Origin: Psammoneis japonica
Lineage: Eukaryota
Direction: 5' to 3'
NCBI GenBank assembly: GCA_008632985.1
Contig: QPGO01000090.1
Location: 62,001 to 126,000, forward strand
DNA: 64,000 nucleotides
The notes below the pieces were generated by a model. The model was not told where the DNA came from. It worked only from the letters and a program-made list of their open reading frames with translations, and made no database searches. This document shows, piece after piece, positions 25,868 to 59,950 of the stretch. Every line of letters starts with the position of its first letter. Positions within the stretch are counted from its first letter, which is position 1. A program made the translations under genes and the position numbers.

Positions 25868-26049
25868 GGTTTCCACGCAGTTCGATTGTTGTGTGTTGTG
25901 TGTCACTGTGTCACGCTTTCGAAAAGAGGAGAAGATCGCAAAGTCAAAAGATTCAAGATCGGAGCGAGATCGGACATCGGGTGTGCGCATGCATAGCTAT
26001 GCTCGCGTTCGTTTGTGTGCAGATGATGAACGGATGAATAACAGACGAA

Positions 26050-35303: not shown

Positions 35304-36096
35304 GGCGTTTGAAGTTCTACTCTTCTTTTTTTCTAGTGACTGAAACTGTCTCAATTCTTCTCAAGGCAACACAATCTGTGCCTTCATGCACTGAGCACGT
35401 TGAAAATGTTTCAAGTTCATGAGCAATGAGCAACGAGCAGCTCACAGCACGACGAGAGTGTTCTATTCTCGCGGTGATGCTGATACCGCCGCGTGTAGAA
35501 ACCTACGGAGAAGTACGTACGTGAGCTTGGAGGGAGAAACGAGAGAGGGACGGACGCCGTAAGGACCGCAGTCGCTCGGTCGTAGCATGAATCTACCGTA
35601 TGAGACGTCGAACGTGTTGTAGAAGTCATTGGGCACAGGCAATGGACTCCAGAGCTCATTGGTGATGTCACACCAGGCGATCCAACCAGATTTGCAGGGT
35701 GTGGCTGCCAGGTGCGTCCAGGAACCTCCGAATTGACTCCGGGTCAAACTCTCGTGTTTCATCAATGCATCTTACAAAATGTCCTCTTCACCTTTGGGTG
35801 ATCTGCCAAGCCCAAAGAAACAGATTTGCCAAATTGGGGGGAGCGACACAGCCAGTCAACACCTCTTCCATTGACTTGCAGTTGTGCAAACCATCTGGGA
35901 TTGGGTGCAGGGCTTCAGGCCAAGGAGCCAGCAAGAGAAACTTTTTTGAACCACTCCGCCATGGCATTGAATGACGCTGACTGCCCTGTGGCGCCAATGC
36001 CAATCTAGAACAACAGTCAGAGCTTCTGCAAATTCACTGCTCTTCCCAGAAAATTGCCAAAGGCAGAGGCAAACTCTTGCAGGTTGAGACAGGAGG

Positions 36097-39000
36097 TGTT
36101 GAACCGGCAAGTCAATGTTGCCAAAAGGGAACCCGCAAGGCTTCTTGCGCGCCACTCATTGCACTTGCCCTGGTTGCTTTGGCAGCCATGCTTTGAATGG
36201 AAGTTGTTGACACAAACTTCAAACTCACAGTGCACCGGGCACCCAGCAATGCCGCAACACAAGTTGTGCAAGCCAGGTGATTCACTCCAAAGAGCGAGAC
36301 AAACTGAAAGGTGAGCAAGATTGGTGATGATGAAATGCCAAGCACAAAAAGTCACCAAATCTGTCACATCAGGATCTTCAACATCTTCTCTTCAACATGT
36401 CTGGGTTCTCTGTGTTCCCGCTGTCCACAAATGCTCTCCAACACACTCCTGCCACTCTCAACAATGTTTTTCTTTGTCTTGGGGGATGACATGCCCTCAG
36501 TTGCCTGCTTGCGGTTGTCCTTCAAATCAGCAACAGTGTGTCACATCATGAGCACAATCCACAAAATGCTCCACACGGTTGCGGCAAAATCTCTCCTTGT
36601 CAACTTGCTGTCCTGGTCCTTGGCCAGGTCCACAACCCAACTGCTGATCACCTTGGGGGTCAAATCAAAAAATGCCATTTGCTTGCAAAACTGCTTGTGT
36701 GTGATTTCCATGCAGGGAAAAATCATGGTGTGGAAGAACAGCGCCAACCTCTGTGCATCACAAATGATGCCATCGTTGTCCCTCACAAGTTTGTAAGGGG
36801 TCAACATGATGTCATGGCTGGGAGTCTTGATGAGCTTCACAAGGGCGTCACATGCCCCACTCTTGTCCATGCCACAGGTGGGCAAACAAATGTTCATCCT
36901 TTTTCACAAGTCACGAGTGTCACTCTTGCTCAAGGCCAACTGCAAATCATGCCCTTCAATTGGGAAACATTCTCACCTCTGTGGGGTTCTTCATCACCTT
37001 GTCACCATGCAGACAACAACACATTCTGCCTTGTCTTGAGGCCCAGCTCCCCCAACAACTTGCCAATGTTCTTTGGTCTTGTGAGCTTCATCAGCTCAAT
37101 GCTTTGTCTCAGATGTTCCCATTGGATCATCACGAATGGAGAACATCAGCACAGCAGCGGACATGCTGTGCTCTTTTGTTTCAAAGTCCCACTGTGCCAT
37201 CTCTTCATGCACTTCTGTGATCAACTTGCACTTGCCCAGCCATGAGCCCTTCCACAGCCCTGATGGCTCCAGCTCCCCCCTGCAGGAAGGCACTGTTGTG
37301 TTCTTGGGGTTTTCAGCTTGCATCTGGTCACAATGCAGCCAAACACCTCCTGCAGGTCCAAGGTGTCTTTGCAGAGGTGCAGATCACAAGTCAGTGTTTT
37401 TTGCCTGCTCTTGTTCCATCTTGTTGACCCCTCCATTGGTCTGTTGCAGTCTTCATCTGTCACTCATTTCTTGCACCCTTGGTTTGCTCAAACCTGGAAT
37501 TTCTTGTCCAGTTCAGGTGCTTGAGAGAGAACAGACCAACTTTCCTCAATCTTCATTCCCAGGTGCTCTGACTCATGTGCATGATGCTGCAACAGTGGGG
37601 TGCACATCCATGTGGCCTCTCTTGGATGCAAACAACTCCTTGGCTGCCCATGTGTGGGATGTCTGTGCTTTCTCTGTTGGCAGTCCATTGCCACTGGTGT
37701 CAAAAGGGTTCTCGCCTGCTGGCACGATGGCAGCATCTGCACTCTCAGTCTTTTCTGGGAACTGATCAATCATCTTGTGAGCACAGTTGGTCATGTCAAC
37801 CTTCACCTTGCTCTTGCAGCTGAAGTCCAGTGTCAAGCCAAGACAGTCACATCTTTTCCCTTGTGTGGCAACAACTTTGCCATGGCTTCCACACATCTTG
37901 CAAGCAAGCTCAAAAACTTGTTGTTTGCTTTTGCATTCTCAAAGCTCACTGTCATGTCATCCACATGGAATTGGACAGTGTGCTGTTTGCCATTGACTGT
38001 TCAAGAGCAATGCATGGATCACATGGGTTGAACTCAAACCATGTCTTTTTTCAAGTCTTTGTGAAATTGCTTGCATCCCAGCAGAGCCACAGTCAGCATG
38101 CCGCAGATGGCTCCAATTGTGACTTGGATGTGAAGGACTCTCTTGCATTTCTCCAGGACCACACATGTGGCCCATGTGGGTTGGGATCAATGCTTGCCAG
38201 CATGTTGACCAACACTCATGTGATCTTCATCACAATCTGGTCTTTGCCTTCCTCAGGCTCTGGCATCATTGTCTGTGCACTGAATGCATTTGATGTGTTG
38301 GCACTCATGACATTGCACTTTTCATTGGTCTCAATGACAGTCATCACAAATGTTCCTTCCAAGGATGCTGTCAGGCTTGTCTTTGTGCAGCCATTCTCGG
38401 GTTTTGGTTTCCCACTGCAAACCATTTGTCCTTTGATTTGACCATGTTGCTTCTCAGTTGGGAACATCAAGGCTGCCATTGCCTTGGTCCTTTCAGTTGG
38501 GGCAGTCATGTCCTTGACTGAAGCTGGTGCAAAGCACACTCCATTGTGCAGTTGTTTCATCTGTTTCTCTGAGGCATCATGCCCCTCTGGCCAAGTTCTT
38601 CAAGGCCTTTGTGTGACAACTGTTGTTGTGCAAAAGATGCACTCTTTCTACTTTGGAGTCAGTCACTGGCACTGCACATGAAGCATGCAAGTGCCATTGC
38701 TGTCTCCATTTCACATTCAATGTTGTCCTCTGGATTGGGGCTCACATTTGCACATGGATGGTGGCAGTGCTTGAGCCCATTTTGCTCTTTTGTTGCTTTT
38801 GCAATGTCTTCCACACATGCAAATCAAACTTTCTTTTCTCTGTGTTCATGCAATTTCATGGTGAAGGATGTGATGGATGCCTTTCCACTTCTGGCAGTTC
38901 TGCTCAGCACAACTCTTGCCTCTTCCCCCAATCTGAAATCATTCTTCTTCCCATCTGTTGTCTTTCTGGGAATTGTTGTCCTCTTTGAACTCTTTGTCAT

Positions 39001-42000
39001 TGCAGTGTTAACATCTTGTTCTCTTCTTTGGCTTCTTGTTCATCTTGGATCTTGTGCTGTTTGTTGATTGGGGCTTGATCTTTTGTCAGCCAGTGTGTCA
39101 TTTGCTTCTTCACATTCGCCATCATCTGAGTCAGGTGTTCATCTCTGCAGTCTTCATCTTCTGACTCCTTTGTTGCATGGTTTGCATCATCATGCTCATC
39201 TTCTTTTTTTTGTCCTTGCTTTTGCTGTCACTTTCATTGTTGTCTGCTCCTGCAGTCCAAACAGCATTGTGCAGATCATCCCCATGCTTTCCTGTGAATT
39301 TGAGTTCTTTGATGCCTTGCTTTGCAGCCTTCTTCTTGTCAGCCAGCATGTGCAAGGGAATGGGGGTGCACTTGCAGGGGTTCAGAAGTTTGCCCATGTG
39401 CAGGTTCACAGCACAGTGTCCACCCTGGGGCAAATCAAAACATGGTTGCAGGCACATGCTGTCAATGCCATGTGCTTCCATGGTGTTTGTTGGGTTGTTC
39501 TCAATGTGGGAAATTGCAAATTCCCCAAACTTGAGCTCAAAGTGTTTGTCACTGTCAAGGTTTTTTCATTGCAGCCACAAAAGTGTGTGAGCTGCAAGTG
39601 TTGGAAAACCCTTCCTTTTGCCGGCGCGCAGGTGCACATTTGACATGATGGTGTTCTGGACAACAGCATGCTTGCACATCAACTTGGGTGTCATCTTTTG
39701 TGGCATGTCGTGTGCAGCAGCCAGACTTTGCTCCTTGATGGTCTGCATGCTCTGCTTGACTTTTGGAACATTGTCTTTTGCAATTGCAGACATGAGTTTG
39801 AGATTCACGCCATTCATGACTTTTGCAAGCATGTCCTCAAACTTGGGATCACACTCAATGAAGAAGTCAACCTTGAACAGGGCCATGTTGTGCTGTCAGA
39901 GAATCATGTCCAAAGCTTTGCACAAATCTTTGTGCTTCTCGGACCTCAGTTTTGCACTTGGTTGGCACTTGATCATCTTGTCAATCACACACAGCAGCTC
40001 AAGGGTGCCACACACTTCCACAATGTCAATGCAGAGGATCACACCTTCTTGCTGCTTCTCACAAATCTCACAGGTTGAATTGCCACAATGTCCTTCCTCT
40101 CATGGGAATGGCGCACATGCTTGGTCTTGCCTTTCAGTGCATCTGTTGGTGGACCCCAAATGGTCACCATCCTGTCCATGTCTTCAGGTGTGATGGACAA
40201 GTTCTTCACCTGGTTGGATCACAAAAACAGGTTGAAATCCTTTGCAGTGGGTGTTCCCAGCCTTGCAGTGCAGTCTGAGCACCTTGTTCAGTGCACCACA
40301 GTTCCTCATGCACTCATGTGCTTCTTGTGAGTCTTTTTCACAGCCTTCTTGTCCTTCAACAGCATGCTCACACATGCAACTCACTTTCTTGGACCTCTTT
40401 CATGCAGTCAAAGAACTTCTGACTTTATGATGTGTGCAAAGGCATGCTGTCCAATGTCCTTCACTTCAAACACCGTGACTCACTTGCCAGTCTTCTTGTC
40501 CAGCAGTTGCAGCTTGTCTGCCACTCTGTTGTTGCATGCTGCATGGTGCTTGCTCTTCACATCCTTTGGACTGAGGATGTTTGCTGTTGCATTCTGTGAT
40601 CCAAGCTTTCCATCTCCCCATCTGGGCATGGTGCAGTCCTTCTTGTCCAAAACACACACCCCTGCACTGGCAGACAGACAAATCTTGATCTTTTCCAGTT
40701 GCACACTGCACACAGTGCACTGATCTTCAGCTTGCTGCCATGCTGAGGGTGGAGTCATTGTCAAAGATGTTCTCATCTGACTCAATGCCGGCCTGTCCCA
40801 GCTCCAGGTGCTCTGAGTGGGTTCGATTCCCATCATTTGGCAATTTGTGCATTTGGCGCAATTGGCTTTTTCCAAATCCGTTTTTTGCCAAATCGAAGGG
40901 TGAGTGTGCACTTCACATGTGTTTTCGGGTGTACACTCACCTTTCGATTTTCGAAACGATCAAAATTGAAGGAGTTAATTGTGCTAAACTGCGCAGAAAA
41001 TCGGCCTCTCGCGTGATGAAAAGCGGATCACCTGGAGCTGGAACAGGCCTGCCTGTGTCAGCTTGGCTCCTGGTGTTTCCTTGTCTGGCTGCAACCCATG
41101 CAGGCCATGCAATGCTCTTCTTGCTCCAGCTGGAGTGGGTGGATTGATCAGATCTGGTGGTGTGTTGACACTGACACTGTCACCATCTGCCAACAAATTG
41201 TGCTCATCTCTTGTCTGCATTTGACTCTGTCCCCTGGCATCTGGTTTCTTTCCAGCACCACAGTGTTGCCTTGATTGCCACTCTGGGCATGACTCTGGTC
41301 CTTCCAGTTGCAGACTTCTCTCTGGACCCATTGTTGTTGCTGTTCCTGTTGTTGGAATGCTTGCAACTCCTCTTGTCTCATCACTTGCAAGGGGGTCATC
41401 ATTTTTTGAATGACTCGGTGGTGCATTCATTGCCTTCTCCAGGATCTTTAGACACATGTTCTTGCCCAGGCTGCAATCTGTTACAAAGCTCTTCTTTGGG
41501 CTCTTGCAGAAGCAGTTCTCACTGTCCTCCATGAACAGGTGCACAGTCCATGTCTCCAACACTGCCACCTTTGGCACTTCTCTTTCTGCTGCAGAGGTGC
41601 AATCCTTGCACCCCTTGGCATTGTTGACAAATCCATCTGGCATTCTGTTTCCCGGGTCATTGCTTGCAGCATCTTGCCAATTTTTGAACCTTGACAAGCA
41701 ATCATTCAGCGGCTCATTCTCTTGCTGCTTCACTTCCAACATGTGCTTCAGTGACTTGGCAATTGTGTGGAACAGATGTCAACCTCTCATGGAATCAAAC
41801 GCAAGGGGTTAGATCAGCTTCAACGACTCAGTTGGTTGTCCCCAATGCTCTGGTGACTGGGATCAGAGTGCAGCACTCTCTGCTTCATCAGCTTGGTGCA
41901 GCAAATGTCCGTGATCATGGCAAGTGCTGCAGTCTTGTTTTCTTCAAGCTTCCTCACTTTTTCTCTTTGCAGTTGTGTGGCATGGCCTTGTGCTGGCATT

Positions 42001-42826
42001 CCAGCTCTTTTTCTTTTTGCAACCTGTTTTCCAACTTGGTTTGGCAGTCTTCATCTGACACAGCCAGTGTTGGCACATCTGGCATGCCTGATGCAGGCTT
42101 TTCAGAGTCAAAATCCTTGCACTGCATGTCTTCCAAAGATCTTGCTGGATGCAATCCCTGATCACACTTCTTCTGCATGTTGTTGACAATCTTTTCCTTG
42201 ACATGTTTGTGTGTTGTGTTGTGAGCCTTGTCACTCAGTGATGAAAGATGAAACTTCATCTCAGGCTGAAATCTTTTCTTTGATTTGGTCTTCTTGTTTA
42301 TCTTGCAGCAGGAAGACTTGTGGCCTTTGTCACCTCTACCTCAGTTGCAACCTTGGCCTCTGCCATTTGATCTGCCTCCTCCTCTGCCACTCACAAATTG
42401 GAGTTCCAATGTTGGACAACTGCACATGGAAGTCAGTGTCTGCAAGCTCCAAACACAGTGCTGGCAACTCTCTGGAGTGAATGTTAAACCGGCAATTCAA
42501 TGTCACTGAAAGGAAATCCTGCAAGGCTTCCTGTGCCACTCATCACACTTGCCCTGGTCACTTTGGCAGCTGTGGTTTGCCTGGAAGTTGTGGACACAAA
42601 CTTGAGACTCAAAATGTGGGGTGGGCACCCAGTGACACCACAACACAATTTTGTGTGAGCCAGATGACTCACTCCAAAGAGTGAGACAAACTGAGAGGTG
42701 AGTGAGATTGACAACAATGAAATTTCAAGTGCAAAGAGTCACCAAGTCCACCACATGAGGACATTCAACATCTTCTCTTCAACGTGTCTGGGTTCTCTGT
42801 GTTCCTGCAATCCAGATGCTCCAACA
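36097..42826 (-). mobile_element. Degenerate Ty1/Copia LTR retrotransposon; LTRs 42482-42826 and 36097-36443
   Basis: About 345-bp direct repeats TGTT..AACA, with PPT-like GGCAGGAGTG before the 3' LTR. Minus-strand order is gag, integrase (IECDPKF..NVPKVKQSMQTIKEQ), RT (GKQHTVQFHVDD, LGLTLDF, ASKRG..DVHPTVA). Confidence 0.85.
40790..41049. mobile_element. 260-bp MITE inserted in the Copia element
   Basis: TIR GGCCTGTYCCAGCTCCAGGTG, flanked by TGCC on both sides. Internal hairpin AAATCGAAGGGTGAGTGT..ACACTCACCTTTCGATTT. Confidence 0.8.
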
Positions 42827-44523
42827 GGACAATCCTGGCTCTCACAGAGAGAAGCACTGTGTGACCCAAAGCTTCTAAAAGGACTGTTGCTGATGATGAA
42901 TGATCCCTGGCATCAGTGAAACCTGGCACTTTCCAGGTTGCTCTTTGTTTGCAGCAGCTCCACAAGCAGATTTTGAGCAATGGCTCTGTCCTTGTTGTTG
43001 CTCCCATTGACAAACTGAGTGATGTCTAAAAACAGCTCAAATGTGAGCATTTTCCTTGAGTGCATCTGCCAGATCAGAAGCATCTTGATTTGCAAACTCA
43101 AAGTCCAGCCAGCCCAGTTTTGCATTTGTTGTGGATGGCTTGTTTTCACAAACTGAGATGAAAACAAAGGCAATTTCTTCTTCTGTCATGGGCTGCTCTG
43201 ATGCTGCCAAATCATCATCAATGGCAGAGACATCAGAGTTTTTGCTCCATGCTGGTGACCAGATCTCATGTTTGTCAAGAGACACATGCACCCTGCTTTG
43301 CAGAGTTTTCTGTTGGTGTTGCTGTGCATTGGGCATTTCTCATTTCTCCATTCAGAGCATTTTTTCAAACTGCAGCTGAAAGCATGGCAGCACAACCACA
43401 ATGGCATGAAGTGTGCCACGTTGCATGAAAGGTCTCTGTCCATCCAAGAGACTCTCAGCACAGGTGCAATGGAATTTTTTGTTGGCGCTCTCTTTGTCAC
43501 TCACAAAGGGTGCCCTCTTCCTCAACTGCCTTGACATGATGGTCTTGGCAGCCCACAAATGTGTGGCACACAGCTCGTGCACTTGGAGAAAGAAGTGTGC
43601 AAAGAACATTGCCTTGCTGCACTTTTCCACAGCTTGCAAATGTTCATTCCACCACCAGATTTTGTGGTGCAGATCAGAGACCAATGAGAGAGAGTGGTCT
43701 GAGACTCACCCCCCTGCTCACACAGGGGCTTTTCACTCATGAACTGCTTCCATGTTGAATGACTGATGTGGGAGCAGTGCCGTGTGCTGCAAATCACCAG
43801 ATCAAGCCACTGCCAGCTCACTTCTTTTTTTTTTCATCAATGACACTTTGCTTGTTGATGAGCAAAGAACAAGTTTGCCTGCAGCCCCTGCTGCCCATCC
43901 TTGTGGCTCTCCTGCAGGAGCTTCATCTCCAGGTTCCCCAAAGACACACAAGCTCCTGCATGAGGTCTAGTTCCTTGCAGCTTGTGCAACAACCAACTGG
44001 AAAGCTTTGCAGAGTGTCCACCAGCCACAACAGAGAAGAACAAGGGAGCAAGCAACAGAGGGCAATTGTCAGGCAATCAGACCAGCACAGCCCAAATGAG
44101 GTCTGAGCCTCCATGAACAGGTGAGGCAATGACCCATGCACAAAAACAGCTGCAGCTGCAATGTGGCAAACATCAAGATCATCTGAGCAGCCAAGGACCC
44201 ATGGCCCTTGTCACAAAAATCAACCAGATGGATGATGCCATTGCATCAGCTCCATTCTTGCCAACATGCATCAGCTCCATTCTTGCCAACATGGGCTTTT
44301 AGAACAAAGAGATGTCAACAGCTCTGACAAAGTGAGCCACTCACACTGCAGTCACTGGAAATTGGATGACAAAGAATGGAAGCTGTTGATGTGGCAACCA
44401 GCCAGATTTCCAGAATTTTGACATTGTTCTGCAGCACCACCCTCTGTTTCAGCAGTGGCAGCAGTCTTTGCCAAATGGTCTGTCTGGCAACAGCATGGCT
44501 GCATTTGCTCACAACTGACAAAA

Positions 44524-47500
44524 TGCAGCATGTGTCATGCTGGCACATGGTGCAGACCATGCATGTCCCAGGGTGGCACACACCGCAGCAGTGATGGCAT
44601 GCCCCATGGAAACACAGGGGGGCTCTGTGATTCCATGGCTCAGCAAGAAGTTTGAGCAGTGAGTGTCCATGCACACAGTGTGTGCATGTTGTTGAGAGGC
44701 CATCAATGCAAGCATGATGCAGCACAAAGGCAGCACATGCATGTGCTCATGATGATGCACAAAATGTGGGTTGGAGAAACTGACACATGGCTGATCACAC
44801 ATCAGCCAACAGGGAACTGTGTGACTCCCCATTCACACAATTCCACTTTTCTAGACAAAATCTAATCTCACAATTTTCAAAAACCAACTTTTAAACAACC
44901 CACTGTTTTTTGTTGCCTGACAGTGCACAAGGCATGGCAATGTTGTCTTGCAAGTGTGCAAAGGTTGTGTTGTCAGTTTGACTGCTGACATGCCAACCAA
45001 CCATGAAGAAGCAGAGTGCACTGCCAATTCCATTGAAACATCTAGAAAAGAAGGTGCTGTCAAAAGGAAAGCACCACATGCATGAGCTGAGGAACTTGCC
45101 AACAGATGCTGGCAGCCCCATGCATGAACTTGGTGTTCTGCCCTTCTCTGCATGTGCAGAGCACCTGTCATTCTTGCACAACACTGAACATGCAGTGTTG
45201 GGTGGTGGGGCAACAGAGACAATGTGTCGTTCAAGGCATGTGTTGCCAAAGTTGTGAGAAAGCATCTTCCCATGGAGGGTGGCGCTGTTGCAGAAGGATC
45301 ATTTGCAACATTTCATGCACAAGCCAGTCAACATGAAAACTCATGATTGTGTCGCAAGGGCCATTGAATTCAATGGCTGTGCAATGTTGTTTCTGCCCAG
45401 TGACAGAAGATGGGGCAATGCCTGCATTGCCACCAGATGATGAGCTGGTTGACTTGTTTGAACTTGGAGTGCCAATGCATGGCATGGGGAGATCATCTTT
45501 CAGGACCACAATGCATTGGCACATGGCATTGCCCAATTTGTCTCATTCTGCAAGTGTGCCAAGCAAGTGGAGCTCACCAAAGGTGAGCAGGAGAGTCGTG
45601 TCAAGGTTCCTGGGAAGCAGGGTTGCAAAACAGACAATTGTTGGTGGTGTTTGATTGTGGGTTGAGAGAAATCCCTTAAATGCTGCATTGCATGGTGCCA
45701 ATGTCATGCAAGAGTGTTGCAGTTTGAAGTGTCAGGTGAAATGTCTCAGTGCATCCCAGTTGAACAGTTGTGCTGAGCTGTCTGCATGGAAGCCCTGCAA
45801 TGATGATGAACTTCTTGGTGCAGCCACTGAAGCCAAGGTCAAAGACATCCTCAAGTCCCACAAGGCAAAACGCAAGGCATGCAAAGAAGAGTTGAGTCAC
45901 TTCCATGACTTTTCCTCAAGTGACTCAGATGTTGCATCTGACAATGACAACATCATCTGAAAAGCTGGCCAATGCAAGTCAGATGGGTTTGTCACATTGG
46001 ATGAATGTGCTGATCACAATGTGCCCTGTTGCTGTGCTCACATTGCAGGCCAATCTAATTGGTGCACCAAACACACCCATTTGACACCGACCTTGTTTGT
46101 GGCTGTGAATGCCAAACATGGCAAAGGCAAAACTGAGGCAATTGAGGCACTGCTGGACAGCAGTGCCAGCAGTGAGCTGTTGCACTGCAGCACGCAGTTT
46201 TGAAAGGCGTGCAGTTGTTCCATTGAGTTTCAGTTGCAAAAATTGTCCACAACTGCAGAACTCACATGTGATGTCCAAATGCACAACACATGCCAGAATC
46301 CCAGGGTGTGACATTGCATTCTCAGAACAGCTGTCAAATGGCCAAAGGCTTGTGGTGAAATGCCAGTGAGGGATGCAGAAGTTGCAGCAGAGACATCCTT
46401 CTTCTTCCATCAAGATCTGGAGCCTCTGTTGATGGAGTGACAGAATTTTGAAAATTTTGGGTGCAAAATGCACACCAGCATGCCTTGCAGAGACAACCTG
46501 AGGGAGCACAAGGGCTTGACAGTGACCAGCAAGCAAAGCTGCTGAGGCTGTTGGAACAATGTGAGCTCTCATTTTGATGGCACACCAGGTGAATGGAAAG
46601 GAGGCAAGCCACACCACACCCAACCAAAGAGGACACTTGTGAGCCACATCATGGATGTCTGTGCAAAGTCTCAAGGGCACATGAAGCCACACTCTCAAGG
46701 GCACATGAAGCCACACTCTCAAGGGCACATGAAGCCACACCACACAAAGAAACAGCATGCCTGTGCAAGACTGGCATCCTCAAACATGTTGGCCATTCAC
46801 AGCAGGTCACTCCATCATTTGTCATGCCAAAGAAGGTTTCAAAGGCATGATTTGTTGATGATTTCAGGGATCCACACAAAAGGATCAAAAGATTGCCTTG
46901 TCCAATTCTCCACATCCAAGACATGCTTTCAAAGCTTGAGGGCTTCATGTGGGTGCAACATCATGACAGGATTTAAGTGCAGGACATTGCCACAACACTT
47001 GGCTTGGTCACCTGACAGTGGCAGCTGAAAGCTGTGCATGCTTGTCTTTCCATGGTAGAGAAAGTGCAAGATGCAGGTCCTGCCAACAGGCTCGTGCAAC
47101 TCTCACCTGACATTTTTCAGGAAAAGTTGTCAGAGTCATTCAAAGAATGTTTCATTTGCACATGCGCACAACTCAGATGATCTTCTTGCAGTTGCTGAGG
47201 GCACTTGTGAAGACCAGTTGGAGAAACTGGTGGTCATCACACTGCAGCACATGCATGATGCTGGGCTTGAGGTCAGTGCAAGAAAATCATGCTTTTGTCA
47301 AACCTGGTTGTGGAGAGCACTTGGGCCATTTGGTCACTGGGACAGATCATGCTCAACACCTTCCAAAGCCCACTGACAAAAGGCAGCTGTGCTTGTTTCA
47401 ATTTGTGGGTGTGGTCAACTGCCATTGCAATGCTTGGCCAAGACATTCTGAAATTTTAGCTCTGCATGCAAGACTCACAGACGGGACTTCTAAATGATGG

Positions 47501-49353
47501 GAATGGACATCTGTTGAAGACGAGGTGCTTGAAACCATGAAAAGAGCATTGTCAGATGATGTCTCATCAGGGCACCCAGATTTTTACAAACCATTTGAAG
47601 TCCACGCTGATGCCTCCAAATGTCAACTCAGAGCAGCACCGTCCCAAGAAAACAAACCCGTTGCCTTTTGCAGTGGCTTGACAGTGCACAATTAAACTGC
47701 ACAATGACAGAGAGAGAATTGCACACCATCTTGGAGACCTTGAATAAATTTCAAACAATGCACCTTGGTCAGTGCACAATTGTGCATGCTGATCATAAAA
47801 ACCTCATGTGTGACGTGTTTGTTGACACCACAAGTGTCATGCATTGCCAGCTGGCATGCAAAGAAGAATGCAGCCTGGAACTCTGGTGCATCAAGGGTTG
47901 CCATGACCTCAAACCTCATTGCAGATGCCCTGAGTCACCTGGCACCAAAACTTGGTTTGGAGTCCAAGTGTGGTCTGACAGTCTTAGAAACACCAGGCAC
48001 ATGTCCTCCCCTGCACAAAGCATTTGCTTTGCATGCACTGGCTCCACCTGCAAGCTTTAGAAAAATGCAAATTGTGGGGGAGATGTGCCATGACAGCTGA
48101 CATGCTGTCAGGACAAAATGGTTGTGCCAGAGGCATTGAGACAACCTCCATTTGAGTGGCACTGGAAGCAGCTGTGCCGCCACCCTGGCAAGACACAAAC
48201 AGAAATGTCTGTTGCCCAGCACTTCTGCTGGCCTGGCATGAGAGCTGCAGTGTGCTCTAAATGTGTTGAGTGTGGTCAATGCCAAAAGACAAATGCCAGA
48301 CACATCACTGTGGGAAGTTTTGCCAGAAATGGTGGCTGAGACAGCCAAGATCAAGCAATGTGGAAAGGACACTTTGCAGCTTGTTTGGGCAGCAACCATG
48401 ATCAACCCAGTGACAGGATGGTTTGAGATCAAAGAAGCAACCAATGGACAAGCACATGTTCCAGCAAATTGTGTGGAACAGACATGTGGCTGTGCAGGTG
48501 CCTGTGGCCAAGCAAGGCGATTTGTGACCATGGCACTGAATTTGTGGCCAAACTCAGTTGCATGATCAAGAGTGACTTTGACGTTGCCCAGAAACCAAAA
48601 AGCAGAAGAAATCCACAGACAAATGCCATGGTGGAGTGCATGCACACCAGATTCTTCTTGGAAACATGGTGCACTCATTTCAGTGCAGGATGTGGAGCAG
48701 GACAAGAGCAACCCATGGAGTGGCACTCCATTGGCTTTTGGTCTTTGGATGTGATGCAGTGGAGCTGATCTGCTCAAACAACAAATGCAAGAACATGAAA
48801 AGCAAAAGGAGTGCCAACATGCTGTTGGGTGAACTGGCACTTGTCAAACAATGACAAAAGACAAAATGCAGAGCTGACTGTCATGCAGATTCAGCCAAAA
48901 TTGTCTGCATGAATGACAACGGCACTTTTTGCATGCAAGATGCTGGTGCACTGACAGGTGCACACAATCTCTGTGGCAGATTGTGCTCCCTGGCTGCAGC
49001 GGGGCATCTTGATGCTCATTGTCCTGGGTCATGGGGGAGCATTGTGGTGTGTGTTGCACTGGCATGCAGTGCAGACTGTGCACATCCCAGGGTGGCATGC
49101 ACTGGAGCAGTGATGGTGTGCACTGTGGAAAAAGCACAGGGTGCTCTGTGTTTCTAAAACTTTGTGCCATGTGGTGTGCTGACAGGACCCACCACCAGTG
49201 CAAGCATGATCCAAAATGCCAGCTGATGGTGAATTTGTGCGACCCCCACATTCACACTGTTCAACTTCTCCATGCAGCAAACTGGTCTCATAATTGTCAC
49301 AAAATGGCTTTTGAAAACTCCCTGTTTTTTGCTGCCTGACATCACACAAGGCA
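44524..49353 (+). mobile_element. Degenerate Ty3/Gypsy LTR retrotransposon; LTRs about 44524-44934 and 49043-49353
   Basis: Protease ALLDSSAS, RT (FDGTPGEW, SDDLL..DAGLEVSARKS), RNase H (KPFEVHADAS..TERE..DHKNL) and integrase (HPG..HFCWPGM..C..CQK, TGWFEI, DHGTEF, NPQTNAMVE). GGGGGAG PPT before the 3' LTR, TG..CA ends, possible AAAA TSD. Confidence 0.88.
46669..46740 (+). repeat. 24-bp tandem repeat x3 within Gypsy RT
   Basis: TCTCAAGGGCACATGAAGCCACAC three times, identical. Confidence 0.95.
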
Positions 49354-49861
49354 AAAAAGAGTGGTTGGTTTGTTGGGGACCAAACTGAGGCAGATGACAG
49401 ACACAGATCAAGAAATCTTCATTCATTTCTCATTTCTTTTTTGCCAGCAACTCTTGCCATGATGATTCTGGTGTGTCAGAGGTTTCCCAGTGCCACAGCC
49501 ACCAACTGTCATCATTCATTGATTCAGTCATCAAGACCTCCTTGGGTTGTTGGCCTCGTGCACTTGGGTTCTTGAATGAACCAAAGCTGCAAGAAAGTGA
49601 GTGTGGCAGCAACAGAAAAGCAAGGGTTGGACATTGAGCTGCTTGTCTGGAAGCAGACTTGATCTAGATGATGGCGAGTTCCTTTCAACACAATGCAGGT
49701 CATGCTGGCATGAAAGCATTTTGGGTTCACCTTGTCTCTTGAAAATTGTTCTTATAAAATTCATGACATTTGTTGAAGACAGGCAATTTACAGTGAATGC
49801 AGTGATGGTTAGGATGCAATCCATCTCGAGTGCACCTCTGCGCAAACACAACACCAGCCAC

Positions 49862-51418
49862 TCAGATGCAGTGTGTCTCAGAGCTTGCCTGCATGAACAA
49901 CATCTGATTGAAGTTTCGAGGTGAATTGTGAAGCTCAGAATCAACTTTCGCAGGCACATCATCGGCAATTACAGCTGCGCTGCTCAAAACAGAATCAGGA
50001 GGATGTGCAGCCTTTTTCTTACGAAAACTCTTCAGAAAAGGCAGAATGCGCTCCGTCCGCTTCTTGTGATCGGCTTTTTCTGCCTGGATGGCCGCTTCGA
50101 TGATGGTCTGATTCTCTTGCAAGGAATCAACAACTTGACGAAGCTCCTGCAGTTGCAAACGGAGGTCCACTTCCTCAGTGTCAACCAGTTGGGCCACAAC
50201 AAGAGGCCCGGCGTCCTGGGCTTCTTCAAGAGAGTCTCTTTCACTTGTTTTCTGCTTTCTGCCCACTTTAATGTCAGCCTCAGCCTTGTGAGTGACGTCA
50301 CCAAGAATTTGGTGAATGGCCGGTGGATCCGGTTTCACATGACAAGGAACCGCACCCGCATCAGCCGGAGGATCCGGGCATGCAGAACGTGCACAAGGAT
50401 CCCTTAATTCAAGTGTTTTTGATGGAAGTGAAGCTGTTTTTCGTGTGCTTGTGGCAATCTTGTTGTCAACATCTGGTGGATCGGGACGAGTGGCTGCCTT
50501 CGACTTGTGCTCTGAGCCAAAGGCTCGCTGCAGCAAAAGTCTCCGAGGCCTGCGTGATGTCGATGCCTCGTTGTTGCCACCTTGGTGTTCATTTGTGTCT
50601 TCTCTGTTGCCCTGCAACAAAGAGTCATGATGCTCCTGCTGCATCATTGCCAGCACATCTGCAGTCTCTCGCAAGCAAAGATCTAGTGCAGCAGCAGTCA
50701 TGCTGCGACTGTCTCTCACAAGCGATGCAAGAACTGACGGCATCGACTGCGAGATGGAGTCGAGCTCGAAGGACGCACAAGCAGTTTGCTGTTCTTCGTT
50801 TCTTCCTGGGATGACAATGACACTGGGAGGTTCAGCTTCTGGGTCGTCTTCCCCTCTATCTTCATGCCGCGGAGATGGTGGCGCGTCGTGGATGTGATTT
50901 CTGTCCACCGCATTTGCGTTGAACTCGAAAGCACTTTCCCATGGAGCAATCGCAGAGGCTCCAGTCGGTGGGGAAGGCTTGGTGATTCCCCTCTTTTCAT
51001 TTTTTTCTCTTTCAGCAAGAGACCAAGCAACCACTCTTGACGCAGCTGCTTGATGCAAGTCGCACAGCAGGCCGGGACGCCTGTGGGTCTCATCCCAATC
51101 CACCAGTGGCACACTTGCAACTGCTGATCTTCTGTCCACCTCTTTCTCTTCGAAGGCATGTTCCTCCATGTCATTGCTCGCACCCGCTGAGGCGAGAATT
51201 CCAATTGCGATCCCCCCAATTTCTGATGGACTTTGCATTCTTGATGCTGCCGAACTGCCACATTTTGGCGGCGACAGAGCCTGAAGAATCATCACGTGTA
51301 GATTGCTTTTTGCTGTCTTGTTGTGAGAACTGTTCAGAACACAAAAGTTCACTAAAAGAAAGCAATTCATCTGCATCTTGTGAGTGGGCCGTGCTGCAAC
51401 CGCTTGACTCGGTGTCAC
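49862..51418 (-). CDS. Uninterrupted 518-codon host-type ORF with no tyrosine (TpA-erased, CpG-retaining); true start, stop and functionality uncertain
   Basis: Protein-like composition (PDPP motifs, coiled-coil-like LRLQLQELRQVVDSLQE) unlike the spurious ORFs nearby. No Y in the translation, and CG is abundant. Confidence 0.6.
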   Translation of the reverse strand: MTPSQAVAARPTHKMQMNCFLLVNFCVLNSSHNKTAKSNLHVMILQALSPPKCGSSAASRMQSPSEIGGIAIGILASAGASNDMEEHAFEEKEVDRRSAVASVPLVDWDETHRRPGLLCDLHQAAASRVVAWSLAEREKNEKRGITKPSPPTGASAIAPWESAFEFNANAVDRNHIHDAPPSPRHEDRGEDDPEAEPPSVIVIPGRNEEQQTACASFELDSISQSMPSVLASLVRDSRSMTAAALDLCLRETADVLAMMQQEHHDSLLQGNREDTNEHQGGNNEASTSRRPRRLLLQRAFGSEHKSKAATRPDPPDVDNKIATSTRKTASLPSKTLELRDPCARSACPDPPADAGAVPCHVKPDPPAIHQILGDVTHKAEADIKVGRKQKTSERDSLEEAQDAGPLVVAQLVDTEEVDLRLQLQELRQVVDSLQENQTIIEAAIQAEKADHKKRTERILPFLKSFRKKKAAHPPDSVLSSAAVIADDVPAKVDSELHNSPRNFNQMLFMQASSETHCI

Positions 51419-52990
51419 ACATCATCGTCATCCGTCATCCGCTGTCACAGTTTCTTTTTCTTCTCTGTCTTTTCAATTGATGTGGAACTGCAGCATTGCC
51501 GCCAAGTGCCAATCCTTGTCAGTGCCACAGCACTGTGTGCACAGTGCTGTACATTGCACGGTGTTAAGAGGGCGGTCCAGAGATCGCCTGGTGCACTTTT
51601 TACGTAGAAACTGCCAGAGAGCCAATCACGTACATTCCCACACAGACGCAGCACAAAACAGAAAGCATGGCACTCCATCACGCGACCTCACGACGACACC
51701 ACCTGACGACAACGCATCAAAATGGCGTTGTCCGCATCTTTCTGCAGCTCCTCTTTCACTTGCCCGATTGCTCCAAAAGGGCCAGGGGAAGCTAATGAGC
51801 TTTCTCTTATAACAGAGCAATGCAAACAAAAGTTGTTTTTTATTCCAAAATCTCAGAATACAGTGCAACCGATTGTCAAGGCGAACTCGCACGTTGGCGG
51901 CAACAACACCAGTTGATGTTCACTCTAGAACAACAATGGAGACGTGATGCCCCAACAAAATAAAGTCCACACCCCCATGATAAATTTTAAAGCTGGTTCT
52001 TCTTGTTGGCACACAATCTTTAGCTGCTTTTTAGAGTTTGTTGCATTGGCTGACAAATTGGGCAAGTGAGCCACACATTTCTAGCTTGCAAACTGCCTTG
52101 CAGCCAAAAGAAGCAATCTAAACCTTCAGAACAGCCATGATGCACTGGTCTGCCGAATCAAACTCCGCATCACCAAGTGGAGGCGGGGAGAACCATTGTC
52201 AAAAATGCGCTGTGATGGATCTGAGCTCTTGAGAGCTTGTCCAGCTTTTGACACCACAGCCCCAAATCACCACATTTATCATGAAGTCAGCCTGATGCTG
52301 TGTCTGTGACTTTGCCTCGTTTTGGAATTGCCACGGCCATCGCATTGCAGAATTGACATTCTTGACGAGGAAAAGTGTTTCTGGGACACCTTGCGACGAC
52401 GGAGACCCTGCAGAACAAAAGAACAATGTAGAAAGAGACAACACATGCAAGTCAAACGGGTGTTAATGTGTGAAGCCTCAACGAAACACACAGCACGAAT
52501 GGTGATGCATGAGGTCGGTCGTGATGCAACAGAAGCGACACTGTCAACGCGAACCTTCAGTGAGAATTTTCACCATCAGCTGCCCATGTGAACCTGTGTG
52601 CTCTCGAGCTTGTCACATGCCTTGTGCTGTGACGTAAGACATTCTGTTGAGAGTACACTGTAAAGTGCCTCAGAAACAACCGCATTTTTGAAATCGGCGA
52701 AACGCCATTGTCCGTGTTGTTTTGCGTGTCATTTTGCGTCGCGAGCCAGAAAACACTCCCAAAAACTGTTCTACAGGGCAAAATGCACTGAATCTACACA
52801 GATTTGGGTTGCACCAGGCCACGTAGAAAATGAACGGGCCAAGAACTGTGGTGCGCCCACTTGATGCGTAGAACATGGAACAGCTCTGCTTCACGACATC
52901 CGCGTTTGCTTTAGTCGTGGGTCTTGGCTTGGCGAGTAAATTCCGATGGAGAGGACGGACAGGCGAGAGGAGTGTGAGTCTTGCATGCGT

Positions 52991-55900
52991 GTGGCTGCGC
53001 CACCCAGTGGTCTACCTTTCACAGTCGCCCAGACTTGGACAGTGGGTGCACCAAGAGGCCAGGAGCAACAGGCTGGGACAGTTTGCCAATTGGTCCCAAA
53101 CCTTGCATCCCAGGCCAAGTGAAAGCCCGGGAGTGGAGGAGGGTGGGTTGCAAAAACAATTGCTTCGACCTTCAGACAGCGCTGGTGTCGCAACCGAGGC
53201 AATGAGGTTCAACTGCCTTGTTGTTTTTCTCTCATTGGCTTCAGCTGGTGCATTGGACAGGTCATCTCGTGGGTGATGTGGTCTGAGTGTGCATCTGTTG
53301 TCTGCACGCTTCATCACTGCACCTGTTCCACGCAGACCTCGGTGGCTGCGCCGCCCCACCCAGTCTGGCTTTCACAGTTGCCTGGACTTGGATGGCAGGC
53401 ACGCCAGGCTGGGAGCAATGGGCTGGGACAGTCCACCAATTGGCCCCATTCCTTGCATCTCAGACCAAGCAAAAGCCCACTGCATCCAAAGGAAATTGAC
53501 TGGGGTGGGACAGGCAAAGTGCCTGTTGGGAGATTGTGCGCATCTTCAGCAGGGACTTGGCTCAGGATTGGAAGGGTTGAAGCAGGGATGGCAGAACCCG
53601 GGACAAGAGAAAAACTTCTGTGTGTCAGCATGTTGGTGGCAAAGCTGTGCATGAGGGGTTTGCCTGAGTGTGCAGGTCGCGAAGCATTTTGTCGGAGCAT
53701 CAGCGGCCGACAAGACGAGTCACATCAGGATCTTTGTTGGCACAAAGAAGTGCCATGGCACCACCAGCTTGGAGGCTGCGAGTGGAGGCATCATTGGGAG
53801 ATGAGCTGCAGGTGTTGAAGTTGGCCATGGCATTGAGACAGCTGGCATTGGTGATGTCACTCAAGGCGACATTGGCCCAGCGGTTGTTGCAACAAATGGC
53901 ATGCAGTGGCGTGTCGGAAGGAGCATTGTGCTCTCACAAATGCTTGACATGATGGTGCAAGGCCTGGATCAGACCAATTTTGGGGTTGGGAGTTGATCCA
54001 TGCCCAATCAATTCACCAGGAACTCTGTTCTTTTGCATGGTGAACAGAAGGGTGACAAAATTGGTGGTGCAAAGGTGTGAGAGCGGGGCAACAAGCAGAG
54101 TGTGGAGACGATGGGCGGCAATGTGAAAAGTGACATCTTGGAGTCAAAAGGGGTCACTGCAAGATTGTGCAGTGGTCTCGGCATGTTTGCCAGGATGGCA
54201 CAAGAAGAAGAAACCAATTTAGACCATGTCTGAGACAGCCAACACAAATGTGCCGGTGGTTTGCTTTGCCACAACATGCACTTGAGGAATCAGTGTCAAT
54301 GGTGCAGGCTTCATGTGTGTGGGCGGTGGATCCCAGTTGCACCACCCTTTGAGTTGCTGTGCCAGCCAACAGTTGAGGTTGCAATTGTCCACCAGGCAAT
54401 GGTCTTGGGACCCCAGGCTGGCAATTGTCTGGCTGACACCATGGAGGATGTCCTCCATGGCACAAGACTGGATGGCAACACTGCCAGGAACAATGCGTCC
54501 TTTGCAATGGTGGCAGCAAACACCATGAGGAATTGGGTGGGGTCTTCCATGTTGTCGAGGAAAGGGTCAATGCCCAAGGTTTTGCAATGGCAGGTCCAAA
54601 ATTCCCAGGCAGAATCATGGCGGGCGGCACATTCAGGAATGACACAGGATCTGGCCTCTGACTGCACAGTGCTGAGATCACGGAGGCAAGCATTGTGGGT
54701 CTCAGCCAGCAGAGTCACTGCGGCAGGGTCTGGGGATGTTGCTGTTCAAAATGAGACAGAAATGCAGTGTTGGAGAGGTTCCAGAGTCTGGAGGCATTGT
54801 TGGCAATCATGTTGGTCCAGCCCAAGATGTGATCCCACAGCACCAAGTGGCGGCAGTGGTGCTGGTGTGGTGCACTCAAGCAGAGGAGGTGCACGGCAGC
54901 ATTGCATGCAGTGAGCGAACCTTTTCATGACCGGGATGCTGCAGGCATGTTGTTGGTGAGCACACCTGCTGTGCATTCCCACACATTGTGCTGTTGCACA
55001 AGAATGTCTGGGTGTGCAATGGTGCCAGTGAGCTTGAAGTCACTGTTGGCAAGGTCGCCATGTGGGTCATCCCACAACACAACAAAGCATTCTTGGATGT
55101 TGTGGGGAAATGGCTCACACCATGCAAGAGGTTCACCATTGGGAGTGAACCATGTGCCACCCATTCCCGGTCCCACAGCGTCCACTGTGCCAACAGCAGA
55201 CAGCATGTTTTGCACAATTTTGGCAAGATGTGTGGGATGGGCAATGATGTCACAAGCCAACATTTTGATGCTGTCAAGCTGAGCACGCATGGCAGAGTCA
55301 ATGCAGATGTTGCAACAGGCTGAAGAGCCTGTGCCCACCAGGTGTGGCAATGACCACACTGTGGAGCTCCCCAAGGACTGTGTGCCAAGTTTTGACAGAC
55401 ACACAACAAATGTCACACAAGCTGTCAAAGACTTCCAGGAGATGCACAATTTGGTGTGAGGGCAATGCAATGATCTGTTGCAGGGTGTCAAACCAGTTCC
55501 TTGTGAGTCAAAGCAACCATTGGTGACAAGGGGTGCAAAATGTGTTGTCTGTGGTGATGGTGTGCATGACAACCGAGTGGGAGTGTGCTTGTTGTGACTG
55601 AGCCTCATGCCCGCAACAGTGAGGAAGATGCTCAAGCCACTGTTGATGTCTTGCTTGGGGATCAGCACTGCCCAGCCAAAAGCTGTTCATCAGGTGTTTG
55701 AACAACTCTGGTGTGAGAATGGGAGCATTGGCAATGGCACCAACCTGCTGAGCCCATTGGCCCAACAGAGCCTGGATGGAAGACACAGCTTCACCCTTGC
55801 CTGCCCCAGCCAGGGCATGCCACATCTCAGGTGATGCAGTGTCGTTGTTTGCCTCACACATGTGGCAGATGCTGGCAACTGTCTGGGGAAATTTTTCAGT

Positions 55901-59922: not shown

Positions 59923-59950
59923 TTAAAAAAAAACTTTCATCTTTTTTTAA

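Follow-up and report, generated by a model that had tools for sequence, protein, structure and literature searches.

Near-complete, flank-dependent conversion of TpA to TpG or CpA in silent blocks of an algal genome

Introduction

De novo hypermutation of TpA to TpG or CpA has been described in mutation-accumulation lines of the chlorarachniophyte Bigelowiella natans (B. natans; Mettrop et al., bioRxiv 10.64898/2026.01.13.699255). According to the main text of that preprint, integrated viral DNA was hit, 231 de novo mutations were recorded, and the genome contains further clusters that are poor in TpA, rich in CpA and TpG, and carry RT and DDE domains. The mutations were nearly all A>G or T>C, lay at TpA on either strand, and were confined to certain regions. 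We describe the same features in the window, by which we mean the whole 64-kb stretch of DNA that was analysed. The two cases differ in host, as the nearest named relatives of the window's genes are diatoms, and in degree: depletion in B. natans is mild (region Rho TpA of 0.45), whereas the observed/expected ratio (o/e) of TA here is 0.03-0.04. The main text of the preprint does not mention a preference for particular flanks, a link to CpG or any diatom; flanks may be shown in its Table S2 or Fig. 2B. No second report of TpA hypermutation was found in the literature searched.

Fungal RIP is likewise a hypermutating defence: it ruins transposons through transitions at a single dinucleotide, and a dinucleotide signature is what remains. 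The change in RIP is from C to T, in Neurospora turning CpA into TpA. RIP therefore raises TpA, whereas here TpA is destroyed, with a drop of ~12-fold. RIP also requires duplication and mutates both copies, whereas here one copy can stay intact and the erased DNA is now single-copy.

Deaminases and thymine marks offer further comparisons. ADAR and APOBEC3 produce transition clusters that disable selfish elements, but they edit RNA or single-stranded replication intermediates, so that no further edits are added once the element has integrated; here the changes are later than integration and affect both strands. The natural enzyme TadA edits a U-A-C-G loop. TadA and ADAT2-ADAT3 deaminate A after U or T and have residues that read the 5' and 3' neighbours; in the same account, the preferred DNA contexts of amphioxus ADAT2 are GAA for A and TCG for C, and evolved ABEs tolerate a wide range of contexts around A (PMC10354150). 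In dinoflagellates, also SAR algae, 5hmU is enriched on repeats, prefers T in TA and TC, and helps to silence transposons; that source describes a silencing mark, not a mutator, and its account of the mark reports no link to T>C (PMC11572971).

Results

Extent and composition of the erased DNA

In silent blocks of this alga, almost all TA steps have been turned into TG or CA. Five erased domains, totalling 36.3 kb (Table 1), have o/e values of 0.04 for TA, 0.15 for CG, 1.89 for CA and 1.80 for TG. Base composition and the dinucleotides AT, AA and TT are the same as in normal DNA; TA and CG alone are down, and CA and TG alone are up. About 54% of the window lacks both TA and CG, and another 11% lacks TA only. 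The blocks are sharply bounded and the adjoining DNA is spared. In the domain at 35751-49750, TA falls to 0-8 per kb (22-61 in normal DNA) and CG to 1-15 per kb (33-69 in normal DNA), and most of its length is single copy (read-contig depth ~61-75). The erased DNA comprises a gypsy pol remnant, LTR-like repeats, a pseudogene copy, flanks, and mostly unidentifiable single-copy sequence. When ORFs in the erased and TA-only DNA were searched with Pfam, matches beyond three gypsy domains were weak and below curated cut-offs, with no viral hallmark.

Table 1. Coordinates of erased domains and repeats in the window
Feature	Position	Strand	Remarks
Erased domain	10251-20250		Intact genic segments 6467-7111 and 8146-8547 recur here as an erased copy (18537-19665)
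TA-only erased copy	22036-23412	+	Copy of the adjoining intact unit 20821-22036
Erased domain	26251-29000		
Erased domain with the finding	35751-49750		TA and CG nearly gone, CA/TG excess
LTR-like direct repeat, left copy	36094-36465	+	
MITE-like insertion	40787-41052		Not erased; 10 CG; holds GTAC (40931-40934), sole RTAY of 36100-49400
LTR-like direct repeat, right copy	42479-42851	+	
LTR-like repeat left of gypsy remnant	44520-44940	+	Pairs with 49039-49360
Decayed Ty3/gypsy pol, single frame	46801-49101	+	18 stops, 0 Tyr, Cys 7.7%, His 5.3%
RVT_1	47059-47373		E 2.7e-4, under the Pfam cut-off
RT_RNaseH	47611-48057		E 4.6e-6
Integrase_H2C2	48094-48336		E 1.2e-9
LTR-like repeat right of gypsy remnant	49039-49360	+	
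Margin	49751-51500		TA erased, CG kept; 519-codon ORF 49862-51421 (minus) without Tyr
~50-copy repeat	51342-53342		Partly TA-depleted; copies differ mainly at TA
Erased domain	53001-59250		CG loss partial in first ~1 kb
Erased domain	60501-64000		Reaches the window end

These counts, together with pairs of intact and erased copies, rule out three general explanations: foreign DNA with a composition of its own, selection against TA, and GC-biased conversion. A further explanation is that the letters are wrong, with modified bases (5mC, modified A or T) misread in DNA that really keeps its CG and TA. Both erased dinucleotides are plausible modification sites, and no sequencing platform is recorded for the supporting run. 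However, k-mer contigs from run X1, the sole DNA run containing the stretch and possibly the same sample as the assembly source, agree with the erased DNA, showing 0-6 differences per 0.85-4.5 kb and a uniform depth of ~65. The window also contains a gap of Ns, as is usual where short-read assemblies have been scaffolded, and the same signature occurs in contigs and proteins of other sources. We regard such an artefact as highly improbable. In the domain at 53001-59250, many of the differences between window and read contigs are CG<->TG/CA.

Surviving TA sites define a graded flank rule

An earlier note based on a hand scan had put the TA steps between 36100 and 49400 at roughly 30-35, about two thirds of them TTAA, CTAA, TTAG or CTAG, with a few half-sites and a single RTAY, a GTAC inside a MITE. 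The exact census bears this out: 36 TA, made up of 24 YTAR (67%; CTAA 8, TTAA 7, TTAG 6, CTAG 3), 11 half-sites (ATAA 3, CTAC 2, TTAT 2, TTAC 2, GTAA 1, GTAG 1) and one RTAY, whose G is at 40931. The 266-bp element around it is high-copy (read-contig depth ~13,000 vs ~65 in its flanks), with 27-nt inverted ends (40787-40813 and 41026-41052) that are 89% complementary.

Across the five domains there are 107 survivors (YTAR 74, RTAR 19, YTAY 13, RTAY 1), compared with 883 genic TA (YTAR 167, RTAR 234, YTAY 248, RTAY 234; chi2 137, p 1e-29). YTAR thus makes up 69% of erased survivors and 19% of genic sites, and RTAY 1% and 27%; YTAR is also the biggest class in each domain taken alone. The erased DNA's own xT/Ay frequencies predict 31.9, 25.7, 23.5 and 18.9 for YTAR, RTAR, YTAY and RTAY, whereas 70, 18, 11 and 1 were observed (p 2e-15); in both comparisons genic DNA or internal frequencies stand in for the composition of the real ancestor. 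Survival in this NTAN census, which the earlier note had proposed, is therefore strongly non-uniform after two separate composition corrections. This result, the unchanged AT, AA and TT, and the base composition support that note's view of an enzyme-like specificity over generic GC bias.

A uniform model of survival relative to genic DNA (logL -114.4) was far poorer than one with per-strand purine/pyrimidine rates (logL -41.4; LR 146, p 1e-33). Allowing all four letters at +1, numbered from the adenine, improved it further (logL -28.5, p 2e-6) and gave an adequate fit (deviance 15.8, 12 df, p 0.20). The relative rates by +1 base were T 3.36, C 2.15, G 0.93 and A 0.31, corresponding to per-strand survival of 0.035, 0.12, 0.39 and 0.74. 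The flank rule is graded, not binary, with a 3' order of T >= C > G >> A. Protection also comes from an A at +2, which is present in 58.5% of survivors and 30.3% of reference DNA (p 2e-14), and the effect holds within +1 = A, G or C. Survivors lie in T-run/A-run contexts, with T at -3 in 58.5% and A at +2 in 58.5%. A model of independent hits on each strand fits the survivor data. In TA-only DNA, one RTAY was observed against 7.25 expected under strand independence (P 0.006), which suggests that the two strands may not be read independently.

Products and aligned copies point to the A of T-A-Y

Three lines of evidence, namely conversion products, polarised alignments and variants among copies of a young repeat, point to the A of T-A-Y as the base changed. 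In aligned pairs, 19 half-site conversions went toward the A followed by a pyrimidine and 7 went the opposite way (p 0.014); pooling alignments and repeat variants gives 24 of 31 in the TAY direction (p 0.0017). The earlier note's observation that asymmetric sites mostly change this A is confirmed, as is its exception GTAG>GTGG, which is the main one (5 vs 2 in aligned pairs). YTAY sites gave TG in 12 cases and CA in one, while RTAR sites gave 7 CA and 6 TG, so that their direction is unclear. All six YTAR sites in aligned pairs had lost TA, five of them to TG or CA; this is contrary to refractoriness, in a small sample. Compared with reference DNA, the per-kb gains in TA-only DNA were +19.7 for YTGY+RCAR, +7.8 for YCAY+RTGR, +20.3 for RTGY+RCAY and +0.8 for YTGR+YCAR. 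Thus, ~80% of half-site conversions follow the direction that the survivor-derived rates predict.

Some duplicated DNA has one copy erased and the other intact, including adjacent tandem units. In the polarised intact-to-erased comparison, 0/30 TA and 0/47 CG were kept. Per strand, A>G events are concentrated after T (31/68, compared with fractions of 0.13-0.18 after A, C or G). The TA-only pair gave A>G at 3/25 TAA, 11/29 TAC, 6/16 TAG and 12/27 TAT, and in its first aligned segment (22036-22715) 8/29 TA were kept, 11 had become TG and 6 CA, while 29/41 CG were kept. TG and CA are about equal in each erased kb, and both strands are hit. CA/TG discordant sites between repeats fall into R..Y 13, Y..R 7 and half-site 25, a division that is uninformative because CG-derived sites are mixed in.

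The main rival to an adenine deaminase takes the other base of the pair as the target. A TET/JBP-type dioxygenase would mark the T of R-T-A as 5-hydroxymethyl- or 5-formyl-uracil, and occasional pairing with G would give T>C. On duplex DNA, A>G at T-A-Y is indistinguishable from T>C at R-T-A, and 5-formyluracil mispairs with G. The dinoflagellate mark, with its enrichment on repeats and its taste for TA, also fits. However, that mark prefers TC too, and in our erased DNA TC/GA is just slightly lower than elsewhere (TC o/e 0.99 vs 1.11), a difference that carries little information. 5hmU itself is weakly mutagenic, and we know of no such thymine mark or enzyme in diatoms. We consider thymine oxidation unlikely.

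Changes in retroelements postdate integration

The LTR-like direct repeats 36094-36465 and 42479-42851 are 78% identical in letters, 94% identical in purine/pyrimidine code, and discordant at 13 CA-versus-TG dinucleotides; the pair around the gypsy remnant has 20 such discordances. These 33 discordances indicate that the changes postdate integration. Transversions affect 24 of ~369 and 31 of ~316 aligned positions, and the erased elements are old. The gypsy pol remnant has 324 homologs (best E 6e-36), and columns with a conserved Tyr now hold Cys 5 times, His 3 times, another residue 3 times and Tyr never.

These observations bear on ADAR-like editing of retroelement RNA that is then copied into DNA on retrotransposition. 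Such editing would produce A>G with a 5' U/T target, and one erased block is a gypsy element. However, the discordances arose after integration, the strands are equally affected, and erasure extends to the pseudogene copy, the flanks and single-copy DNA that is mostly unidentifiable. ADAR also favours G as the 3' neighbour, whereas the order here is T > C > G > A. This explanation is very improbable.

Copies of the ~50-copy repeat (depth 3,000-3,800) have seven listed variants, and 7/7 are TA<->TG/CA (P 3e-5). As a sign of ongoing new mutation, these variants are only suggestive.

One of 18 related lineages shows the same excess

Among public pol homologs, 10/150 have Tyr at or below 0.6%. The 26 metagenome loci matched with the Tyr-poor protein P0176, which we used as controls and which supplied lineage L024, are not TA-depleted (o/e 0.41-0.96). 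Differences between P0176 and the protein of L001 are explained by TA>TG/CA in 14/24 cases, a direction that is biased because silent outcomes are invisible. Among 18 outgroup-polarised lineages of a related gypsy family in metagenome contigs, L024 alone was hit: A>G occurred at 20/120 TA sites and at 3/502 elsewhere (~28-fold, p 1e-12). TAY was preferred over TAR (14/53 vs 6/67, p 0.014). The order of purines was opposite to the window's (TAG 1/33, TAA 5/34).

This bears on an enzyme-free process, in which spontaneous or polymerase A>G accumulates at weakly stacked TpA in late-replicating or poorly repaired silent DNA, the flanks acting through mechanics. The age of the erased elements suits such a process, and the T-run/A-run context of survivors could stiffen the step; flank effects could indeed come partly from TpA-step mechanics instead of protein contacts. 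However, 17 of the 18 lineages have no TA excess while one has it ~28-fold, and erasure has struck one tandem unit but left its neighbour intact. If DNA mechanics common to both were the cause, the window and L024 would not be expected to rank the purines differently, as they do. The B. natans preprint also describes bursts in only some lines. On balance we find an enzyme-free origin improbable.

CpG loss is nested within TA loss

No 500-bp window has CG o/e <0.3 with TA o/e >=0.2, and six stretches are TA-erased with CG kept. TA loss extends at least as far as CpG loss in all cases. One such margin contains the ORF 49862-51421, for which a search of proteins of 285-909 residues gave no homolog at E <= 0.001. 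The CG to TG/CA change in the core of erased domains resembles 5-methylcytosine decay in methylated transposons, but TA loss precedes it and covers more ground, and CpG decay explains just half of the CA/TG excess. One enzyme for both CG and TA was rejected: CG survival is low after T and after A, with no TCG-specific signal. In this respect CG loss differs from ADAT2, as it has no T-specific 5' preference.

Discussion

We propose that chromosomal TpA is mutated to TpG or CpA in place, on both strands, by a locally targeted process whose rate is set by the flanks, and we consider this reading probable. It draws on what the window displays, namely the specificity, the direction of change, action on both strands and after integration, and CpG loss nested in TA loss. 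In our model, a local mutator would convert resident TpA on either strand, and the bases beside the adenine would set its rate per strand: T obligatory at -1, T >= C > G >> A at +1, and a protective A at +2. With such rates, RTAY is lost first, half-sites mostly lose the A before the pyrimidine, and the survivors are YTAR sites, especially those resembling TYTARA. The targets would be silent blocks, including decayed LTR retroelements, a pseudogene copy and unidentifiable sequence, with spill of 0.5-1.7 kb past the block core. CpG loss would be a separate, slower process nested in the same blocks, presumably 5-methylcytosine deamination.

We infer that the agent is an enzyme and that silent chromatin directs it. 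The leading candidate, to which we give about an even chance, is a TadA/ADAT2-like polynucleotide adenine deaminase that would attack DNA during transient unpairing. The T at -1 matches the TadA context, but at +1 C is good and T is better, and the loss of CG masks any preference for G at +2. The TadA analogy may serve as a lead only. More tentatively, it is possible that SAR algae (diatoms, chlorarachniophytes and perhaps more) share a dedicated defence enzyme that rewrites R-T-A-Y A:T pairs in silenced chromatin. Such an enzyme would parallel fungal RIP but act on A:T pairs, independently of repeats and more quickly than CpG decay.

TpA hypermutation has so far been known from one report on an alga, whose main text gives no flank rule, and the window represents its end state in another lineage. 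Our data yield a quantitative target motif, in-place action on both strands, and an order relative to CpG decay. The flank fingerprint (T at -1; T >= C > G >> A at +1; not A at +2) may be specific enough to identify the putative enzyme: candidate deaminases and dioxygenases can be checked against it, and the 231 B. natans mutations can be re-read for their flanks. Erased domains are invisible to annotation by protein homology, and, with their TAA and TAG stops lost, they contain long false ORFs. Should the agent prove to be a natural adenine deaminase that works on chromosomal DNA, no such enzyme would have been shown to shape whole genomes before it.

Results

The window alternates normal DNA with blocks that are nearly devoid of TA and CG. 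In the five erased blocks (36,288 bp) we counted 107 TA (observed/expected 0.04), 320 CG (0.15), 4159 CA (1.89) and 4197 TG (1.80), compared with 883 TA (0.50), 1431 CG (0.97), 1978 CA (1.22) and 1952 TG (1.20) in 26,000 bp of genic DNA. Neither base composition nor the AT, AA and TT dinucleotides changed, and TG roughly equalled CA in each erased kilobase. Read-derived contigs of a public run, which may be the assembly's own sample, agreed with the erased sequence, and their depth was even at about 61-75. Thus, the erased blocks are real in the reads and are single-copy today.

Features of the window
Feature	Position	Strand	Remarks
Erased blocks	10251-20250, 26251-29000, 35751-49750, 53001-59250, 60501-64000		
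TA-erased, CG-kept stretches	20001-20500, 22251-23250, 25751-26500, 49751-51500, 52251-53750, 59001-60750		Mostly edges of erased cores
Fully erased pairs (intact/erased)	6467-7111/18537-19204, 8146-8547/19260-19665		
TA-only pair	20821-21520/22035-22740		
Tandem units	20584-23412		Two units of about 1.2-1.4 kb; a 121-bp tandem repeat and inverted 48-bp copies of it form the borders
Scaffold gap	18216-18427		212 N, within an erased block
ALKBH1-like 2OG-Fe(II) nucleic-acid dioxygenase gene	29486-30751	-	Pfam 2OG-FeII_Oxy_2, E = 3e-33
Internal direct repeats	31486-32049		Several, overlapping, 67-74% identical, within ORFs of a normal region
First LTR-like pair	36094-36465/42479-42851		
Second LTR-like pair	44520-44940/49039-49360		Ty3/gypsy pol remnant between the copies
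Tyr-free ORF, 519 codons	49862-51421	-	Within a TA-erased, CG-kept margin
Multicopy repeat	51342-53342		About 50 copies, TA depletion partial
Tandem duplication	59364-60506		Repeat units about 580 bp long, sharing 76% identity; rich in CG (15-24 per 250 bp), poor in TA

The earlier note had described the TA sites that survive in 36100-49400, and its description was accurate: we counted 36, comprising 24 YTAR, 11 half-sites (RTAR or YTAY) and one RTAY. This lone RTAY (GTAC at 40931) lies, as claimed, inside a MITE. The element, 266 bp long with inverted ends of 27 nt, is unerased and has a depth about 200 times that of its flanks.

Uniform survival of NTAN after correction for composition was rejected with both the genic and the internal references. 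The four purine/pyrimidine (R/Y) classes differed between erased and genic DNA (chi2 = 137, p = 1e-29). With expectations derived from the xT and Ay frequencies within the erased DNA itself, YTAR, RTAR, YTAY and RTAY were observed 70, 18, 11 and 1 times against 31.9, 25.7, 23.5 and 18.9 expected (p = 2e-15), and every one of the five blocks had more YTAR than any other class. Poisson models, in which the adenine of each strand survives independently with a probability that depends on its 3' neighbour, gave log-likelihoods of -114.4 (uniform), -41.4 (R/Y; LR 146) and -28.5 (four-letter; LR 25.9, p = 2e-6). The last of these is compatible with the data (deviance 15.8, 12 df, p = 0.20) and places survival per strand at 0.74 before A, 0.39 before G, 0.12 before C and 0.035 before T. 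Position +2 also matters: A occupies it in 58.5% of survivor strand-views versus 30.3% in reference DNA (p = 2e-14), an effect that persists inside each of +1 = A, G and C, and TYTARA-like sites are the most refractory. The 59251-60500 interval holds 22 TA, 15 of them YTAR and none RTAY.

Four repeat pairs contain one intact and one affected member. In the fully erased pairs, the erased copies retain 0/30 TA and 0/47 CG, which mostly became TG or CA, and A>G per strand was 31/68 after T versus 0.13-0.18 after other bases. The TA-only pair has lost TA only: its second copy retains 8 of 29 TA (11 became TG and 6 CA), and CG was retained at 29/41 in one direction and 29/47 in the reverse. The pair belongs to tandem neighbours of which the first is intact and the second lacks most TA while keeping CG. 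A>G rates in TA-only pairs were 3/25 for TAA, 11/29 for TAC, 6/16 for TAG and 12/27 for TAT (TAA versus the rest, p = 0.013). The claim that half-sites mostly change the A before a pyrimidine held overall (19 in the TAY direction versus 7 against it, p = 0.014) and for YTAY (12:1), but not for RTAR (7 versus 6), where GTAG>GTGG was the main exception (5 versus 2).

Alignment-free product counts in TA-only DNA, where TA is erased and CG kept, agree with this direction of change. Gains over the reference, per kb, were +19.7 for YTGY+RCAR, +7.8 for YCAY+RTGR, +20.3 for RTGY+RCAY and +0.8 for YTGR+YCAR. In fully erased DNA about 80% of half-site conversions ran in the predicted direction, if CG products are assumed to be evenly split; survivor-derived rates forecast a similar share.

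Among 500-bp windows, a CG observed/expected below 0.3 never coincided with a TA value of at least 0.2, and six stretches lost TA but kept CG. This nesting means that TA loss is faster or wider, and that the two processes can be separated. CG survival varied with weak versus strong flanks and was low after T and after A alike, with no TCG-specific signal. Across all erased domains, surviving CG was enriched between G/C (GCGC 39 versus 85 genic, CCGG 20 versus 40) and rare between A/T (TCGA 12 versus 121, ACGT 14 versus 103). A single enzyme for both losses was also considered and set aside, as nothing points to one.

The LTR-like pairs bear on timing. At 13 dinucleotides of the first pair and 20 of the second, CA in one copy faces TG in the other. 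Thus, ancestral TA or CG was resolved separately in each copy after insertion. The gypsy remnant carries RT, RNase H and integrase zinc domains in one frame, with 324 homologs found by search. Translated through its 18 stops, it lacks Tyr, with Cys at 7.7% and His at 5.3%; at 11 columns that are mostly Tyr in homologs, it has Cys in 5, His in 3 and other residues in 3. The repeat discordances, the equality of TG and CA, and the Cys and His at Tyr columns together show that both strands of resident DNA were hit. This rules out RNA editing of the element prior to its integration.

The multicopy repeat shows signs of recent activity. Among 40 of the 66 differences in the compared region, those separating the window copy of the repeat from other copies were TA<->TG/CA in 7/7 cases. 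As 22.7% of possible transitions there create or abolish TA, this has P = 3e-5. The half-site differences among them ran in the TAY direction in 5/5 cases and, pooled with the aligned pairs, in 24/31 (p = 0.0017). Within 53001-56000, the read contigs depart from the window at many sites by CG<->TG/CA, at single-copy depth, and CG depletion is partial in the first 1 kb or so. Allelic, ongoing CpG decay would fit these differences.

Normal regions encode glycerol-3-phosphate dehydrogenase, dienelactone hydrolase, a MYND-finger protein, a ZIP transporter, a HAD hydrolase and the ALKBH1-like dioxygenase. The last has top relatives at 54-57% identity, and its named relatives are diatoms: Asterionellopsis (54%), Seminavis (46%) and a Chaetoceros-labelled transcript (42%). 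On these grounds the source was taken for a diatom-like stramenopile. This gene for a nucleic-acid base-modifying enzyme is flanked by two erased blocks, probably by coincidence. With TAA and TAG stops lost, all erased domains contain many overlapping stop-to-stop ORFs of 150-350 codons on either strand, and gene finders would over-call there. Apart from the gypsy remnant, none of the ORFs scanned in erased and TA-only DNA had a trusted Pfam match. Among proteins of 285-909 residues, the Tyr-free ORF had no homologs at E <= 0.001. Either spill-over has damaged an orphan gene here, or stop loss has permitted a false ORF.

Beyond this genome, 10 of 150 public pol homologs have at most 0.6% Tyr and elevated Cys and His; these ten come from four source collections. 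With one of them as query, a scan yielded 26 metagenome contigs that carry a related gypsy family and showed no overall TA depletion. Of 18 outgroup-polarised lineages, 17 had ordinary spectra. The exception, L024, had A>G/T>C in 26 of 32 changes, with A>G at 20/120 TA versus 3/502 sites elsewhere (p = 1e-12). By +1 base these were A 5/34, C 7/28, G 1/33 and T 7/25, that is, TAY 14/53 versus TAR 6/67 (p = 0.014). The affected segment, L024:1164-2675, is a copy of the L001 and L002 contigs' element that has recently undergone TpA hypermutation. In another lineage (L003:7-2087), A>G at TA was confined to TAT (3/41 versus 0/131 for TAA, TAC and TAG).

Discussion

Sequence comparison shows that TpA conversion is local, strand-symmetric and post-integration, with graded flank specificity. 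We infer that an enzyme carries it out. L024 is an independent early-stage case, with the pyrimidine preference of the window and the two purines ranked differently. If real, this difference in ranking favours protein read-out over DNA mechanics alone.

The simplest chemistry would be deamination of adenine to inosine. Passages of PMC10354150 describe a TadA/ADAT2 fold that senses both neighbours of the target base, with a DNA context of GAA for ADAT2 and a broad one for evolved ABEs; because of these contexts the fit is loose. In a mirror reading, thymine may be oxidized, followed by T>C at R-T-A. Dinoflagellate 5hmU offers a precedent of sorts: passages of PMC11572971 place it on repeats, in lieu of T in TA and TC. 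One result speaks, tentatively, against independent reading of the two strands: TA-only DNA contained 1 RTAY versus 7.25 expected under strand independence (P = 0.006), and unequal exposure from block to block would shift this count in the opposite direction. It is possible that the RTAY palindrome is recognized on duplex DNA.

Fungal RIP, ADAR or APOBEC editing, and plain CpG decay each conflict with the TA erasure of the window in a defining feature. TpA hypermutation is described in a 2026 preprint on Bigelowiella natans (Mettrop et al., bioRxiv 10.64898/2026.01.13.699255), whose main text does not contain the words 'context', 'flanking', 'trinucleotide', 'CpG' or 'diatom'; our literature search found no other report. 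The earlier proposal of an enzyme-like specificity, with TAY as target and YTAR refractory, is supported by survivor counts, models, polarised pairs and products, and is now quantitative. The TA erasure belongs to a kind of process that was described very recently, to which a quantitative flank rule is added here.
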